Source of the DNA: a virus
Virus record (IMG/VR): IMGVR_UViG_3300037313_000197
Location: 1 to 64,000 of that record
DNA: 64,000 nucleotides
Reading direction: 5' to 3' (one strand)
Shown here: positions 46,522-63,869 of the stretch, piece by piece
Position numbering within the stretch: the first letter of the stretch is position 1
How the letters are laid out: each line of letters starts with the position of its first letter
The notes under the pieces: generated by a model
The model's database searches: none
What the model saw: the letters and a program-made list of their open reading frames with translations, nothing else
What the model was told of the DNA's origin: nothing
Translations under genes and position numbers: made by a program

Positions 46522-46601
46522 AACTGAACTCTATCAAATCCTCTTGTTTTGTCAATTCAGGATTTCCCTCAGGGTAATGAGCCTGACCCCGAAGGGCCAA
46601 A

Positions 46602-46704
46602 CTTATCAGGCACCATGCACCTGCCCATCGTCTCCGACGTAGAGGTAAAACTCTCCGTAGGGCTTTGCAAGGTTCGTGAGGTCTTCCCCAACCTGACCCT
46701 GACA
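46602..46704 (-). pseudogene. cassette retaining only a 3' gene fragment
   Basis: Reads GQVGEDLTNLAKPYGEFYLYVGDDGQVHGA* with no start codon after the promoter TTGACA-17-TAGTGT. Confidence 0.55.
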
Positions 46705-51066: not shown

Positions 51067-51234
51067 TTAGAGCCTGACCGTCACCGGTCTTCCTGTGTCC
51101 CTATACACAGTGACAGTGTGTTCCTTCGTGGTGACCGTAGAGACCCCGAGCCACACGTCAAGCGCCGTGAGCGCGCTGATAGCGACCCACAGAACAGCCT
51201 TCTTGATGGAGCGTGTACCCTCGTTGTCCTGCAT
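51067..51234 (-). CDS. cassette gene, small TM protein
   Basis: MQDNEG...AVLWVAISALTALDVWLGV. Confidence 0.55.
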   Translation of the reverse strand: MQDNEGTRSIKKAVLWVAISALTALDVWLGVSTVTTKEHTVTVYRDTGRPVTVRL

Positions 51235-53776: not shown

Positions 53777-54175
53777 TCACTCAGCCGACTCAGTGGCCGG
53801 AACGAGCGAGGCGAGGTCACCACGAGCGAACGCTTCCAGCACGGAGCGCTGCGGCATCCCACGCTCACCCACGCGGACACCAGCCTCACGAGCGGCCTCG
53901 CGAACCTCGCTGATGACGACGGTCTTGGAGAGCGGCGTCTTGCCACCCTTCGCGTTCGTCTTGAACGTCTTGACCTTGACCGTCTTGGGCTCGGCATAGC
54001 CGACCTCGTAACGGACGCCCCGGTTCGACTTCTCGAACTCTGCACGGATGGCCGGGTGCAGACGACCACGCTCGCCCACGCTGTAGTCCTTGGGAAGACC
54101 CTCGATCTTGGAGAGGTCAACACCCTTCGCCCAAGCACGGACGACGGACGCGGTGACGTTCTTCTTCGAAGCCAT
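53777..54175 (-). CDS. Lsr2-like protein with tandem DNA-binding domains
   Basis: VRAWA...VGERGRL...F and VREAAREAGVRVGERG...VLEAF resemble the Lsr2 C-terminal domain (IREWAR..G..VS.RGRIP..V..AY). Confidence 0.75.
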   Translation of the reverse strand: MASKKNVTASVVRAWAKGVDLSKIEGLPKDYSVGERGRLHPAIRAEFEKSNRGVRYEVGYAEPKTVKVKTFKTNAKGGKTPLSKTVVISEVREAAREAGVRVGERGMPQRSVLEAFARGDLASLVPATESAE

Positions 54176-54452
54176 GATGTTTCTCCTTCTGTCGTGGGGA
54201 AACCTTTCCCCTTGTTGGTTGTCTCTATCTTGCCTGACTTTGGAGAGACTGTCAAGACCCTTTTACCCTTCTGGGTATTTGTTTGTCGGTCTTGATTGCT
54301 CTTCTCTGTCGCTTACAAGTACAAAGTTACGCCTCATAACAACTACTGTCAACCGTTTCTTTTCCCTGAGGGTTATATCACTACATCTAGTACCCTGAGG
54401 GTAATTTACTACTACATATACCCTGAGGGTAATCTGCCAAACCCCGAAGGGC

Positions 54453-55725: not shown

Positions 55726-56226
55726 TCAGGCGTCTTGGAAAGACTTCCCATTGTAGAGAACCCAAGCACTGTGACACTTGCACTGGTGTCCCTTGTACTT
55801 GATAATTCCACGCTTCGTCGTACGCTGCTTGACAAGCCTGTCCATGTGAGCCACAACATTGCCCGTGACAGAACAGGTAACAACGTAGTTGGCAGTTGCC
55901 TTCTTCGCTTCCACCTGAGCGGAGTTGCTTCGCTTGGTTCGGTTGGGAGACTGACCGAGTTCGATCATCTTCCTACGCCAGACGATTCCGTGACCGTGAC
56001 CGGCACCAACAAGAGCGTGTGCAATCTCGTGCATGACCGTAGCCATGAATTCGTCCTCTTCCGAGTTCTCCGTGAGAAACTTGGAGAAAGAGAGAGTCTT
56101 GTATCGGTACTGACAAAGACCGAAACGGTGTCGTGCGTTGTCCCACTGGAACACCCATCCCTGAGAGATGAGTCCGTGGTTCCTCATGGCTGTCTCTGCG
56201 AGGCGTCGTGCCTGTGTCGTGTTCAT
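55726..56226 (-). CDS. SprT-like Zn metalloprotease (leaderless)
   Basis: RFGLC.Y, TVMHEIAHA, HG.VW motifs. Confidence 0.85.
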   Translation of the reverse strand: MNTTQARRLAETAMRNHGLISQGWVFQWDNARHRFGLCQYRYKTLSFSKFLTENSEEDEFMATVMHEIAHALVGAGHGHGIVWRRKMIELGQSPNRTKRSNSAQVEAKKATANYVVTCSVTGNVVAHMDRLVKQRTTKRGIIKYKGHQCKCHSAWVLYNGKSFQDA

Positions 56227-56344
56227 GTAGACAAAGGTAGTTATTAACGGCCATGTTGTCAACGATAAATTACCCTGAGGGTAGAGGCCGGGTAAAGTGA
56301 AAGGGTCACAGGTAGCGACCCTGTAACCCTTGGAAAGAATACGT

Positions 56345-56547
56345 CTATCCTCTCCCTATAGAAACCTCATCCGGCTACGGACCAGACAGGGGTAGCCATG
56401 GCATCCCTTTGGGAGTTGCACCCGTTTGGCTCCTATATTCACCCTGTTGAAAGTGTCTGGTTAAAGGTGTCTTACTCTGTATTCCCTGTAAGGCTCATCC
56501 TTTGGACTGGTTACCATTGGGCCAAGTTCCTCGTCTCACTTCCAACA
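56345..56547 (-). ncRNA. candidate structured non-coding RNA occupying a whole cassette
   Basis: Promoter TTGACA-17-TAGTGT; 11-bp stem starting at the predicted +1; T-loop-like GGG-TGCAACT-CCC; no ORF above about 28 codons. Confidence 0.6.
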
Positions 56548-56637
56548 ACACAAACACTAGTACTGAACATATGGTGTGTCAAACTCCCATTACCCTCAGG
56601 GTCGCCGGTAGAGAAATACCCTTGCGGGTATCCCCTC

Positions 56638-56742
56638 TCATACAGTACATATCAAGTATGCAATCAGTATGATAGGTGAAAGTATCACAAGGATGACCAT
56701 GGTATATACCACAATCACCATTCCAACAATGAAGTTGTTCAC
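56638..56742 (-). CDS. 34-aa hydrophobic peptide
   Basis: GGAGG RBS, GTG start, MNNFIVGMVIVVYTMVILVILSPIILIAYLICTV. Confidence 0.6.
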   Translation of the reverse strand: MNNFIVGMVIVVYTMVILVILSPIILIAYLICTV

Positions 56743-57216
56743 TGTGTCCTCCCATAGAGTCGGTATCTCACCCTACCACTCTACCGGCCCAACTCTTTAC
56801 CCTCAGGGTATCTTCTACTAGTAGGGAAAACCCTCAGGGTATCTTCGCCGGTGTAGAAACAACAAACCAAACATGATAATCGTTTCTACTAGTAGAAAAC
56901 ACCCTATTACGATGGAGACCCTACATCACCGAATTTGTCTCTATTACGATGGCGAGGCTAGATCACCGATTTTTAGCATTTTTGCGGCATTTTTGGCTGT
57001 TTTGAGCCTCATTTGCGTAAAAATCAGCATATTTTAGCCGTATTTAAGCCTTTTATATACTGTCGCCATATCACTTCATATTAGTGTTATCTTGACAGGC
57101 CACATTTATTTCCTTTGTCATCGACATTTAGTGAAGCATATACCTTCATTTGGGCTCAATGAAGGCTATACCTTCATCATCCTATCTGTCTACATGGACA
57201 TAAGGTACTAGGGTCT

Positions 57217-57505: not shown

Positions 57506-59454
57506 TTACGAGTAGATGGATAGCACTTTAACAAGGCAGACGTAGGTGTCTCTTGTTTCATCCTGCCATACTTCTGACTCTATTACTCTTGCTGTCACTA
57601 TACCGGCCCGTGCTTCCCATGTGATGGTGTCACTGACCTGTACGAGCGCGTCAGAGAGGCAGGAGAGGACGAAAATTTCTCCCCCGTGTCTGTATGGCAG
57701 GATATTAATTACGCGCTTCTCAGGGCTGTGTGCGGTCAAATCATGATTCATACTGGCGCTCTCCGTGCTCATCGATATAGAAGGTCACCTTGGGCTTCTT
57801 TACCCTTGGTTGACTTGACCTCTGCTGTCTTTCCCACTTCCTTTGAAGTTGCATCCTGACTACTGAATCAGCCTTCCTACCGGCCGATTCGAATGCAGTT
57901 TTCTCATCAGGTTCCAGCACCGTATCATTGAACGTCCAGAAGGGCCAAAATAGCCATGGGCGATAAACTTTCACCCTGACCCAATAGTAGTTGGAAGGGA
58001 TGGAAGGGTTGAACTTCTTAATAGAGACTCGGTAATTTCTACTCATCACTTCTCCTTGAAATCATAGGACTCGCCGGTCTCCCTGCTGACCTTGAAGGCA
58101 AACTTCTTCATCTTTTCCTGCTTGATCAGTTTGGCAATTTTAGCCTCTGCCCTCAGTCTCAACTCCCGGCGCAGTTGGAGAACTTCATTCTCTGTCATGT
58201 TGGTGAAATTAACACGATCTACTCGATGCCAAGTTGAGGGACGGAAAATAAGACCCATCGGCTCCTTGTAGTCTGCACTTAGGAATGAATACCCTTCTTG
58301 GGTGGTGAATTCCTCAATCTCGATGAGGTAGTCCTTGCCACCGCGCTTTCTATTTACGATGGAGATAGTAGCGAGAATGATTAGAATAAGGACCGCTGTC
58401 CCAATAAAGCCTACAGCAAAGGCCATGTCACTGCTCCTTACGCTTACGAATATCTGCCTTACGACCAAACTGATACCAGCGCACCGGCCTCCACTTGTAG
58501 ACATACTGAGGGTCGTAACTGGAAATGTGGTACGGAACCTTCTGAACACGAACATACCAATTCTTACCACACATGCAGGTATAAATCGATCCGTCAGGCT
58601 CGACAACCTCATCACGATTGTTCTTAGATTCCCACTTGTCAGTGTGAGTCTTTACAGCATTGGGAAGTTCGCACTCATGCTTGGGCAGTGGTGGCATGAC
58701 AACTCCTGTCTCAGTCTCGTGGGGAACCTTAATCTCCATGTGTGGCGAAGCCAGAGGACGCTTGTAGTTTACGAATGGAGTAGGAACAACATCGGAAGGG
58801 ATGGCGATTTCCCTACCGGCCTTACCCACATCATCAGGGCCGGTAGCCTGAGGAAGACCGACAGCCTTACGAGCCTTGGCAAGTCGCTCCTTTGCCTCAC
58901 TTTCGGTGAACTTCTGCATGTAAGCCATTGTCTTCTCCACTTCAAGAGTCTTCATTTCGATTTCATCGGTGTACTTGGCAATAAGGTCTTGCTGTTTCTT
59001 TATCTCAGCGTAGTAAACTTCCTGCCTACCGGGCCGGTTGTTACGGTAGACTCTACCCTTTTCCGTCTCACCGATCAAGTCATCACATGAGTCACAGTTG
59101 TCAGTGAACTCAAAATCAAACCGACTACCGTACTCGTCCCGGTATTCGATTAGGCAGTCGTCACAGTATCCGTACTCACTCGTTGAAGAATTCATAGCCC
59201 TTGTCCCTCAGTGTGGAGAAAATATCGTATTCAGCATCACGGTACCCCTCAATAGTATTGAAGTTCATCACGTGCTCGTCCTGATATTGAGGACCACGAG
59301 AAAGAAGAATCTCAATGCGCAGGGCGGTATCGTCTGTAAGAACAAAGACCTTCTGATGAATATACTTTGGATGACGGTACTTGCGCATCATGATTACTCC
59401 TAGTATGGTGGTAGTTCTACGTCTTTTGTCATTACCGGCCACTTCTGATTGCAC
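57506..59454 (-). CDS. run of hypothetical genes (57506-57772, 57741-58049, 58046-58426 TM protein, 58428-59195 Cys-rich, 59176-59454)
   Basis: Packed minus-strand ORFs. Confidence 0.55.
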
Positions 59455-59939
59455 AGCCTGAGGTAACCTCTAATCTCCATGAGCAGTACGCCAAGAATGT
59501 TATAACCCTTCTTGTCGCATCTCCCCCAGAACTGATCGCCCCATGTGTTGCCTTCAACCAACATAGCATCGCCGGTACCTAGAAGTCTAGCCTCTAGGTC
59601 CGGATCAGTAAACTTGTTCAGAAGAATCTCACGCATAACATCGATCTTCATAGCATCCCACATTTCTACGTCCAATCCCTTGACCTTCTTACCCTCTCTA
59701 CGGGCCTCAGAAGGCGTTTTAAGCGAGGCAATTTTAACGACGTAGGAAACCTTAGCATCCTCGCTCAAAGTCGGCATAGCCTTGTATTTAGCCGCTTGGA
59801 AGACGTGTTCAGCGGTGGGCATGGACAGTGGCTTGTCGGCGGTAGTGAAGTGCTGTGTGTGATAGTGAAAATTCGACAAGAAATAGTGTTCTCCCTTGAA
59901 CTCGGGGATTACCAAATCACTCATTGTCCCACCAATCAA
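59400..59939 (-). CDS. NADAR/YbiA-family hydrolase
   Basis: FLSNF, TAEHVFQAAK, LVEGNTWGDQFWG and GYNILGVLLMEIR motifs. Confidence 0.88.
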   Translation of the reverse strand: MIGGTMSDLVIPEFKGEHYFLSNFHYHTQHFTTADKPLSMPTAEHVFQAAKYKAMPTLSEDAKVSYVVKIASLKTPSEARREGKKVKGLDVEMWDAMKIDVMREILLNKFTDPDLEARLLGTGDAMLVEGNTWGDQFWGRCDKKGYNILGVLLMEIRGYLRLCNQKWPVMTKDVELPPY

Positions 59940-60551: not shown

Positions 60552-61316
60552 TCATCGAATACGTTCCTTCATTGTAGGCTGGAAGTTGATTCCCATGTTG
60601 AAGATGATGGGAAGCATATCAAACATTTGCAAGAAGTCAATAGTCTTCGACGGGTCGACATTGAACATCTTTGTCAGTTCCTCACGCACGCGCTCTGCCG
60701 ACACACCGGCCACCTTGTAGGTCATGCCGACCATGGCATTACCAGTTTCCGTCTCAATATCGAAACCTTTGGTAACAGCAAAACGCATGGCTCGGAGGAT
60801 ACGCAGAGCATCCTCTTCAAAGCGCTCACGAGGGTCACCAACGGCACGAATAATTCGGTCCTTGATATCCTGCACACCATTGAAAGGATCGATCAGGTTG
60901 CCGTACTTGTCCTTTGCAATAGCATTCATACAAAAGTCTCTGCGGGCAAGATCATCCATCAGCGTACCCGGCTCAACATGGTCAGGACGACGGCCATCTG
61001 TGTAGTCGCTTTCCTTACGAGCAAGCACAAAGTCAGCAGTGAGATTCTTCGTAAGAGGACTAGCGGTTCCGCCAATAATAGCGCTCTGTGTCTGTGGAAA
61101 TTGAGCACGAACAGTCAGGAACTCGGGAGTTTCCAAGAAAACCTTGAAACCCTGACCTTCTAGGTATAAAACCATGTATTCAAACGGAGTAAACTGATTG
61201 TGCGCGGTGTAGGCATCGATATCTGCCTGCTCTAGAACGCAAGTAAAATCAACGTCCTTTGACCTGACACCGAGCAGTTCATCGCGAACCGCACCGCCTA
61301 CCATGTAGAATTCCAT
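60552..61316 (-). CDS. tRNA nucleotidyltransferase (CCA-adding / poly(A) polymerase family)
   Basis: VGGAVRD.LLG..SKDVD, DLARRDF.MNAIA, RFEEDALRILRA.RF motifs. Confidence 0.9.
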   Translation of the reverse strand: MEFYMVGGAVRDELLGVRSKDVDFTCVLEQADIDAYTAHNQFTPFEYMVLYLEGQGFKVFLETPEFLTVRAQFPQTQSAIIGGTASPLTKNLTADFVLARKESDYTDGRRPDHVEPGTLMDDLARRDFCMNAIAKDKYGNLIDPFNGVQDIKDRIIRAVGDPRERFEEDALRILRAMRFAVTKGFDIETETGNAMVGMTYKVAGVSAERVREELTKMFNVDPSKTIDFLQMFDMLPIIFNMGINFQPTMKERIR

Positions 61317-62347: not shown

Positions 62348-62671
62348 CTACTCCTTTGTCCAGATCATGTCATTGACCCAACTGTCTACTTCTTCAATCT
62401 TGGCATCTGGGATAAACCCAACTGCCAAACGAGCAGCGTGAAGGATAGTTTTTGCAATGTCCTCTGGAATAGTTATGGATTTCTCTGCACCGCCGCCGAT
62501 CTTTAGCGTTTCTTTCGGATAGCGTTTCCAAGAAATGTAACTTCCATCCTTCTTTACGGTAATCATTTTCTTACCGATGCTGCCAATCTTTCCGATTTCA
62601 GTAGTGCGAGCGCCAGTTGCGACAATAACCTCATCACCAATTGCTAGATCTTGTCCTAGTTTGTCCTTCAT
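62348..62671 (-). CDS. KOW/SH3-like hypothetical protein
   Basis: MKDKLGQDLAIGDEVIV motif. Confidence 0.6.
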   Translation of the reverse strand: MKDKLGQDLAIGDEVIVATGARTTEIGKIGSIGKKMITVKKDGSYISWKRYPKETLKIGGGAEKSITIPEDIAKTILHAARLAVGFIPDAKIEEVDSWVNDMIWTKE

Positions 62672-62723: not shown

Positions 62724-63869
62724 TCAAGCCTTAATTTCCAGACGAACTGCCTCAGAATCTCCCAGATTCATCTTGAACACGTTCGTAAGATCAGCCATGG
62801 AGTCAAACTTTCGTGGCTCTACCCCAAGTTCCTCGTCAAAAACGTAGCGGTACATGGAGCGAATCTGGTAGTCATCAGGAGCAGTGAGTTCCAACTTATA
62901 GTCAATACGTCCGGGGCGAATAAGAGCCGGGTCAAGAGAATCAACGTGGTTGGTAGTAATGAAGGTGATTAGACCACGTGGAGTAGCCACACCATCTAGA
63001 GCATTCAGCAGACCAGCCAGCGTAGGCGTTTCCTTTTCGGTATTACGAGACACCGTGCTGGTGAAGATATCGATATCTTCAATCAAAAGGATGGAGTCGT
63101 TCGTAACATCACCGATAAGAGCGGACAGAGACTTGTCATTAGTTACCGCGCTCAGGTTCAGGGTATACAGGTCCATACTCAACTCATTAGCCAGAGCAAG
63201 TGTCATGCTGCTCTTTCCATTACCCGGCTCGCCATAGAGCATATAGCCACGGTGCCATGGAATACCGACCCTATCGTAATCGTCAGGGCTGTTTCGGAAG
63301 TTATCGATATCGGTAAGCAGAGCCTCCTTGACACCCTCAGGAAGAAAGACCGAACCCATGGTGCGCTTGGGAAGGTAAATGCATTCCCATCCATAGTTAC
63401 CAACGCTAAAGAGACATGTCTTATTCTCGGTCTTAGCGGCCTTCTTACGAAGATCATCGAGAAGACGCTCTAGAGCACGGATTCCCTCTTCACCACTGGA
63501 AGAGAAAGTAAGAACTTCGCGGCGGTTGATAAGACGTGCACCACCCATGGCCTCCATTGGGCTATCAGGAGAGTCCTGACCCATCGAAACAGTCAACTTG
63601 TGACCATCGATGTAAACAGGAATACCCTCCTTGGCATCGAGGTATCGAGCAATGCCATCACGATCCACGAGAAACTTATAGTTCTTTCCGGTAACTCGCT
63701 CGTTGAGCCAAGCCATCAGTTCTCCGTAACCGAAAGCATCGTCTTCCACCGTGGCGAAGTACCTGTTTCGGTTGGTGTACCAATTGTGCAGGTTTTTGCC
63801 GTGGTTATAGATTGTCATTCCAAGAGCAACACCCTTGGCGACCTTTTCGATCTTTGACTTGGCGTCCAT
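62724..63869 (-). CDS. BCS1-like AAA+ ATPase
   Basis: GIPWHRGYMLYGEPGNGKSS, LLIEDID, LLNALDG, TTNH..LDPALIRPGRID motifs. Confidence 0.88.
   Translation of the reverse strand: MDAKSKIEKVAKGVALGMTIYNHGKNLHNWYTNRNRYFATVEDDAFGYGELMAWLNERVTGKNYKFLVDRDGIARYLDAKEGIPVYIDGHKLTVSMGQDSPDSPMEAMGGARLINRREVLTFSSSGEEGIRALERLLDDLRKKAAKTENKTCLFSVGNYGWECIYLPKRTMGSVFLPEGVKEALLTDIDNFRNSPDDYDRVGIPWHRGYMLYGEPGNGKSSMTLALANELSMDLYTLNLSAVTNDKSLSALIGDVTNDSILLIEDIDIFTSTVSRNTEKETPTLAGLLNALDGVATPRGLITFITTNHVDSLDPALIRPGRIDYKLELTAPDDYQIRSMYRYVFDEELGVEPRKFDSMADLTNVFKMNLGDSEAVRLEIKA

Follow-up and report, generated by a model that had tools for sequence, protein, structure and literature searches.

An ORF-less cassette in the gene array of a large actinophage probably encodes an early structured non-coding RNA

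One unit in the early-gene cassette array of an actinophage has its own promoter, a terminator-like hairpin and no conserved ORF, and a cassette of the same architecture stands at the same place in one related phage (G001). We conclude that this unit is probably a stand-alone gene for an early, structured and nuclease-protected non-coding RNA of ~250 nt, analogous to the Pleft RNAs of mycobacteriophages, and we class it as a member of the early actinophage non-coding RNAs, a kind already known. The non-coding reading is strengthened by the orthologue in G001, which is syntenic and structurally similar. A first-pass annotation had already proposed an early non-coding RNA at this site. Its description of a promoter, a palindrome, an ORF-less segment, a 5' stem and a 3' hairpin holds, while the inner helices and the T-loop that it added find no support; likewise, its interpretation as an early non-coding RNA is supported, but the further reading as a tRNA mimic or Y-RNA-like decoy is not.

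The stretch of DNA analyzed here (the window) makes up the initial 64 kb of a phage genome of 126,890 bp with terminal repeats. The capsid protease has 50-57% identity to its counterparts in Streptomyces phages of the BE cluster (Stanwilliamsviridae), and by its sequence the source is an uncultivated soil actinophage distantly related to that cluster (~50% amino acid identity). The cassette array comprises ~25 units on the minus strand at 45.7-56.8 kb, each laid out as the palindrome TACCCTSAGGGTA, 7-9 nt, TTGACA, ~17 nt and a -10 element of the form TANNNT. A pattern search found 37 sites with this palindrome-promoter arrangement against 0.03 expected, and all exact copies of the palindrome in the genome (26/26) fall within 45.7-56.8 kb; the BE-cluster phage TunaTartare has zero copies. 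The palindrome is probably the binding site of a dimeric regulator. Nearly all array units other than the one studied here have an ORF of 58-166 aa. In about 11 cassettes an ATG or GTG lies no more than 2 nt from the position 30 nt past the -35 element, and these leaderless units thus provide an internal ruler for the start of transcription in the array. RNA-fold stability across the array averages z = -1.1, with terminators reaching down to -7. In the other half of the phage genome (G000:C1:66643-106300), the minus strand encodes all of the phage's 35 tRNAs and its tmRNA (tag ADYALAA). Two of the called tRNAs flank a T-arm-like sequence at 105045-105058 of the phage genome, outside the window.

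Some further features of the array region were noted in their own right. The spacer between -35 and -10 contains a motif, GCCGGTAG, that is conserved in many array promoters of both phages (window 45.7-56.8 kb; L011:7000-17300 in G001). A second odd cassette is found at 46575-46703 on the minus strand, with a -10 element TAGTGT, the transcript start GUCAGGGUCAGG and a unit length of only 128 nt; its most protein-like frame, QGQVGEDLTNLAKPYGEFYLYVGDDGQVHGA, is without an ATG, GTG or TTG start. Genes for a NADAR-domain protein (59400-59939, minus strand) and an AAA ATPase (62724-63869, minus strand) lie just upstream of the array region.

The cassette under study, its predicted RNA and the elements on either side are as follows, in window coordinates.

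56283-56603, minus strand: the whole cassette, with palindrome, promoter and terminator hairpin and no ORF of more than 28 codons
56591-56603, minus strand: palindrome GACCCTGAGGGTA, one mismatch to the consensus TACCCTSAGGGTA, its centre at about -50 from the start
56554-56582, minus strand: promoter, with -35 TTGACA at 56577-56582, a 17-nt spacer, -10 TAGTGT at 56554-56559 and then the 7-nt T-rich stretch ttgtgtt
56293-56546, minus strand: predicted transcript of ~250 nt, with +1 at G 56546 and its 3' end just past the terminator tail
56446-56546, minus strand: 5' domain closed by helix P1, in which strand 56546-56537 (GUUGGAAGUG) pairs with 56455-56446 (CACUUUCAAC), flush at +1
56428-56443, minus strand: 5' strands of the long-range helix, P5 at 56443-56439, a single A, and P2 at 56437-56428
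56357-56366, minus strand: 3' strand of P2
56332-56355, minus strand: P3 hairpin, 10 bp including two G-U pairs, with a GACG loop (p = 0.99)
56301-56331, minus strand: P4, a terminator-like hairpin with a 12-bp stem and a 7-nt loop, followed by the tail UCACUUUAC
56296-56300, minus strand: 3' tail UCACU, the 3' strand of P5, which pairs with GGUGA
56271-56283: palindrome of the next cassette
56638-56742, minus strand: upstream neighbour, a gene for a very hydrophobic 34-aa peptide with a GGAGG ribosome-binding site, outside the RNA

The palindrome, TTGACA and TAGTGT can be read directly in the sequence where the first-pass annotation had put them. When the 30-nt ruler of the array is applied, +1 falls on G 56546, the first base of GUUGGAAGUG; the 5' stem is therefore flush with the start, as had been suggested, although the starting base is this G and not the one at about 56547. 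The unit measures 264 nt up to the next palindrome, and the predicted transcript, from 56546 to ~56293, is ~250 nt long instead of the ~200 nt first estimated. The hairpin noted near the 3' end (56301-56331) is real and resembles a terminator. An E. coli-style sigma-70 promoter scan lists no promoter at this cassette because TAGTGT matches TATAAT at only 3/6 positions; TAGTGT does fit the TANNNT of the array itself, so that the promoter call rests on array grammar. With its own promoter, a non-coding segment and a terminator-like hairpin, the cassette has the layout of an independent sRNA gene. The SprT-like gene downstream is leaderless and has its own promoter, which means that the cassette is not its leader. 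A search of one DNA run for sequence variants of the cassette found none and matched only the source contig.

Thermodynamic folding of the whole transcript (261 nt) gives a minimum free energy (MFE) of -92 kcal/mol with z = -3.0, and the last 150 nt alone reach z = -3.8. Taken alone, the 5' domain has an unremarkable stability (z = -1.3), and for the middle part (56340-56444) z is +0.4. All of the named helices have pairing probabilities of at least 0.95. P1 closes the 5' domain with 10/10 pairs (P = 0.02 by shuffling), which bears out the 11-bp 5' stem of the earlier description as one of 10 bp, or 11 if U56547-A56445 is counted. The 3' part forms a four-way junction in which a 15-bp P5+P2 helix has its 3' strand interrupted by P3 and P4, so that the 3' tail is base-paired too. 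In this fold, nt 92-101 are the partner of the 5' end and nt 104-108 that of the 3' tail. Stable non-coding RNAs typically have their two ends held in helices in this way. The G-U pairs of P1, P2 and P3 agree with the minus strand being the RNA strand, and those of P3 would be mismatches if the plus strand were transcribed. Two inner helices proposed earlier, AAAGG/CCUUU and CUUAC/GUAAG, do belong to the MFE fold, yet neither conservation nor thermodynamics sets them apart, and a proposed GGCUAC/GUAGCC stem, which like the proposed T-loop sits in the middle part with its z of +0.4, finds no support.

The related array is that of G001 (IMGVR_UViG_3300013105_000002, 131 kb), which has degenerate palindromes of the form ACCC-NNN-GGGT. 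Its array has cassette genes in common with that of the source phage (G000) in a different order, and the SprT-like proteins of the two phages are ~45% identical. At each of the 51 cassette starts of the two arrays, we looked for a sequence complementary to nt +1 to +10. A 5'-closing complement of 9/10 to 10/10 was found at three of the 51, all of which begin with GUUGGA; five others reach 9/10 at scattered sites. Besides the cassette in the window, these elements are the following two in G001.

L011:7313-7686: G001a, ~370 nt, with no ORF of more than 34 aa and a strong terminator hairpin
L011:8455-8530: G001b, a stem-loop domain of 76 nt, with a second promoter and then an Lsr2-like gene behind it

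G001a lies directly after a gene for a 33-aa hydrophobic peptide (L011:7099-7200, plus strand), just as the G000 cassette follows the gene for the 34-aa peptide. The two peptides align and are encoded at the same position, so both phages have kept the peptide gene next to the RNA cassette. All three elements have TTGAC(A/G), 17 nt, TA(G/A)TGT, a 7-nt T-rich stretch and a G at +1. The transcript starts are GUUGGAAGAGACCGAGG in G001a and GUUGGAAGUGAGACGAGG in G000, with the first ~17 nt in common (GUUGGAAG-GA-CGAGG); past the first ~20 nt and the flanks of the junction, the two RNAs do not align. To judge from its wider occurrence, the GUUGGA start is partly promoter or leader grammar: TA(A/G)TGT, 7 nt and GTTGGAGG form a start-plus-ribosome-site arrangement that is common in other actinophage-like contigs, where a start codon follows. 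We saw this arrangement in the unrelated IMG/VR contigs L147, L153, L155, L158, L162, L163, L151, L157 and L169 and in one Streptosporangium genome, and some of the contigs that have it also show a 5' mini-hairpin, GUUGGAAAACCAAC. A second promoter, without a palindrome and followed by a leader hairpin, precedes the Lsr2-like gene of either phage (L011:8556-8640; window 54175-54262); the upstream one of these tandem promoters in G001 is the GUUGGA element G001b.

Conservation between the elements is mainly one of pairing. RNAalifold applied to the three 5' domains retains the closing stem P1 alone. Its first six pairs are conserved in sequence, and further in the pairs differ yet stay paired, with both-side compensatory changes of G000 numbering four relative to G001b and one relative to G001a. 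The enclosed sequences, of 81, 34 and 54 nt, are not alignable. A miniature transposon (MITE) with terminal inverted repeats was considered and rejected, as the interiors of the three elements differ in length and are not homologous. P1 of G001a taken by itself is not significant (P = 0.47). The 3' junction has the same order in G000 and G001a, namely P5, A, P2 ... P2, G, P3, P4, P5, with 0-nt linkers. The 5-bp P5 reads GGUGA/UCACU in G000 versus UGUGA/UCAUA in G001a, and P2 has 9-10 bp with an interior of 61 or 154 nt, respectively. Every position of the composite P5+P2 strand is paired (15/15 in G000, 14/14 in G001a). In neither RNA does any of 2000 shuffles score as high, and ~75 other anchor positions in both arrays, used as a control, give 13/15 at most. 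Both-side changes that preserve pairing number three in P2 and one in P5, in addition to several one-sided changes from G-U to A-U. A second predicted fold of G001a is nearly isoenergetic: it pairs the 5' end with the 3' strand of P2, and P1, P2 and P5 then stand at p = 0.05. With a covariance model made from one sequence, the G000 3' domain, the G001a site ranked only 13th, at 8.4 bits and E = 1.7. As only one other genome has the cassette, this covariation rests on two to three sequences; within that scope, the check suggested by the first-pass annotation yields compensatory pairs in P1, P2 and P5, while the inner helices are not conserved.

Relatives were sought by several routes. A BLASTN search with the cassette had no match among GenBank phages, and in G001 and G002 BLAST matched the palindromes alone. 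The neighbouring SprT-like protein retrieved no related loci as a single query and 21 when an alignment served as query, of which G001 alone has a palindrome array; closer SprT-like homologues (P0002-P0007) have 58-79% identity. A scan of IMG/VR for the palindrome-promoter pattern identified G001 as the one phage with a similar array. Further pattern scans of viral contigs left it the sole real relative, a loose 16-mer giving 108 chance matches, and a metagenome scan returned G001's own contig plus one chance match (L125). A scan over genome contigs gave five matches, which is the chance level, and an RNA BLAST against 301 sampled genomes of the class containing Streptosporangium had no match. 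Apparently ORF-poor units in L130 proved to be an artefact, because a 191-aa ORF is present. For spotting relatives of the cassette in metagenomes, the start pattern is TA(A/G)TGT, 7 nt and GTTGGAAG.

The limited sequence conservation raises the question of an empty or decayed cassette, one that has lost its gene and retains promoter and terminator, so that the transcript would be a functionless by-product. We regard this as unlikely. It would account for the low similarity to G001a beyond the start, the unremarkable stability of the 5' and middle parts and the failure of the covariance model to find G001a, and the shuffled and duplicated units of the array indicate a high turnover. Against it, the ORF-less state has been kept at the same place and beside the same peptide neighbour in phages whose proteins are ~45% identical, the long-range helices occur in the same register with compensatory changes and far above the shuffle and in-array controls, and no protein remnant is found in any frame.

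Little in the unit points to a coding gene. Its longest minus-strand ORF has 28 aa. Eight candidate ORFs (56359-56818) were looked up in the protein collection and all were absent, so that apparently no gene had been predicted at the cassette. Pfam searches of the cassette frames had no match, and a six-frame comparison between the elements showed no conserved peptide, in agreement with the earlier statement that there is no credible ORF. A micro-peptide gene for which the folded RNA is the untranslated region is an improbable alternative. The candidates are a 21-aa frame from GUG 56421, inside the 28-aa ORF 56442-56356, and a 14-aa frame from GUG 56539. An AGGAG lies 8 nt upstream of GUG 56421, a workable spacing, and the array does include genes for very small peptides, the 34-aa one just upstream being an example. 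However, this AGGAG is the 5' strand of P2 (p = 0.98), so that the ribosome-binding site would be sequestered, and GUG 56539 is only 7 nt from the 5' end, without usable spacing for a ribosome site. Neither G001a nor G001b has a similar peptide in any frame, and the ORFs tried are those absent from the protein collection.

Less probable still is a DNA or cis-only element, i.e. a decoy promoter, a regulator-binding unit or an insulator against read-through, with the inverted repeats as features of the DNA. The position of the unit near the upstream edge of the array, by clustered palindromes and other repeats, would suit such a role. In G001b, moreover, the inverted repeat reaches 7 bp upstream of the predicted +1, and a second promoter follows with no terminator of the element's own in between. 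The P1 arms are spaced 81, 34 and 54 nt apart, though, which is a poor fit to a protein site of fixed geometry; the G-U pairs are asymmetric between the strands, an insulator needs no cargo of 250-370 nt, and a paired 3' tail is sensible for RNA only. An RNA antitoxin, forming a pair like those of type I toxin-antitoxin systems with the upstream 34-aa hydrophobic peptide, is very improbable. A gene for a 33-34-aa membrane peptide does adjoin the ORF-less cassette in both phages, but the two genes are co-directional without overlap, and the best complementarity to the peptide mRNA, found by eye, is 8 bp in G000 and absent from G001.

Least credible of all is the tRNA mimic or Y-RNA-like decoy of the first-pass annotation, an RNA that would be a substrate of the phage's CCA-type nucleotidyltransferase. 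In its favour, GGGUGCAACUCCC (56423-56411) equals the T-arm consensus of tymovirus tRNA-like structures over 13 nt, this region is identical at 13/14 positions to a T-arm-like sequence elsewhere in the phage, and a PF01743 enzyme is encoded at 60552-61316. The tymovirus match in Rfam has an E-value of only 8.4, however, and is the sole database echo of the claimed T-loop hairpin GGG-UGCAACU-CCC, which has a 3-bp stem and lies outside the MFE fold; the motif is not in G001a or G001b. The RNA has no acceptor-like pairing of its 5' and 3' ends and terminates in UCACUUU, not CCA, and by reading we found no sequence complementary to the would-be acceptor strand. Rfam 15 at gathering thresholds gave nothing in the whole window, nor did ARAGORN. 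The Rfam check that had been proposed, run at E <= 10, gave two chance-level matches in the region 56200-56700, with no family of the tRNA clan or of Y RNAs, and none in L011:7200-8650 of G001. As to a Y-RNA-like decoy, the partner of the 5' end is nt 92-101 rather than the 3' end, and no TROVE/Ro domain (PF05731) turned up anywhere in the 126.9-kb phage genome, in contrast to control genomes, which gave matches. The CCA-adding enzyme noted 4 kb away is real (PF01743 and PF12627), but it lends no support to a tRNA-like substrate, as the 35 tRNAs and the tmRNA explain it without the cassette RNA. Neither the tRNA-mimic idea nor the link to this enzyme need be pursued.

For the preferred reading, a stand-alone structured RNA, we can outline how the cassette would work, with transcription, stability and mode of action all being predictions of the model. 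By array grammar, host RNA polymerase would start at G 56546 from an actinobacterial-type promoter that bears the site of the array regulator, and transcription would stop at the hairpin 56331-56301. The transcript would fold into the P1-closed 5' domain and then the 3' four-way junction. With both termini in helices, it should resist RNases that depend on a 5' end as well as 3' exonucleases, and such resistance would allow the RNA to accumulate early in infection. A search for antisense targets within the phage genome gave only chance matches of 12-15 nt; the RNA therefore most likely acts in trans through protein binding, as a sponge or decoy, and not by base-pairing. A more specific version, which we offer as speculation with a small chance of being right, is that of a dedicated early decoy, a nuclease-proof scaffold that would be produced in the first minutes of infection and would titrate a host protein, for instance an RNase, RNA polymerase or a defence protein that senses RNA. 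Together with the conserved 33-34-aa membrane peptide, the decoy may form a two-gene module. If true, the decoy would be a new RNA family in large actinophages. Within the window, a 107-aa protein (62348-62671, minus strand) has a sub-threshold match to a phage ProQ C-terminal-like family (PF24203, 21 bits versus a cut-off of 27). ProQ-type proteins are binders of structured RNAs, and the 107-aa protein is a possible partner of the cassette RNA.

Three kinds of known RNA invite comparison. Y RNAs, YrlA and tRNA-like RNAs are likewise structured, a few hundred nucleotides long and paired at their termini, with a T-loop-like 7-nt loop; the cassette RNA differs in having no Rfam match, no pairing of its 5' end with its 3' end, no Ro partner in the phage and no conserved tRNA-like domain. 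The 5'-terminal stem-loop stabilizers, as in the ompA 5' UTR and the leader of the phage SP82 early RNA, protect a downstream coding region. They resemble our elements in having a helix at or beside the first transcribed base, a feature that recurs in short form as the mini-hairpin GUUGGAAAACCAAC of other contigs with this promoter style, but no coding region follows in G000 or G001a, and G001b alone, which leads into the Lsr2-like gene, could act in this way.

To our knowledge, phage non-coding RNAs made from the very start of infection have been found before, but almost none comes with a mechanism. The closest counterparts are the RNAs of mycobacteriophages L5, D29 and StarStuff, in which the early promoter Pleft produces a very abundant and stable RNA (PMC5712189). 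The region transcribed has no ORF of more than ~30 codons, and none that is conserved; abundance, stability and toxicity have been measured for the L5 and D29 RNA (PMC5712189). Like the G000 cassette, the Pleft RNAs belong to actinobacteriophages, come from one of the first units downstream of an early sigma-70-type promoter, lack an ORF of more than ~30 codons and follow the same promoter style, with TAGTGC or TAGTGT, a T-rich stretch and then a G. There is no sequence similarity between them and the G000 cassette, as judged from BLASTN against GenBank phages and from reading the L5 region. The L5 Pleft region also contains a canonical T-arm sequence, GGGTTCGATTCCC (L165:234-329, minus strand, ~51133-51228), with a sub-threshold tRNA-Sec match of 22 bits (E = 0.16) and no tRNA called by ARAGORN. 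That region spans ~500 bp with several RNA species at the genome end of a 52-kb temperate phage, whereas the G000 cassette is a discrete unit of 250 nt with its own terminator in a ~25-cassette array of a 127-kb phage. The Pleft RNA of L5 and D29 is still unexplained, and the G000 candidate could be a tractable second actinophage example, since it is compact and has predicted ends, a testable four-way junction and an orthologue for the design of compensatory mutations.
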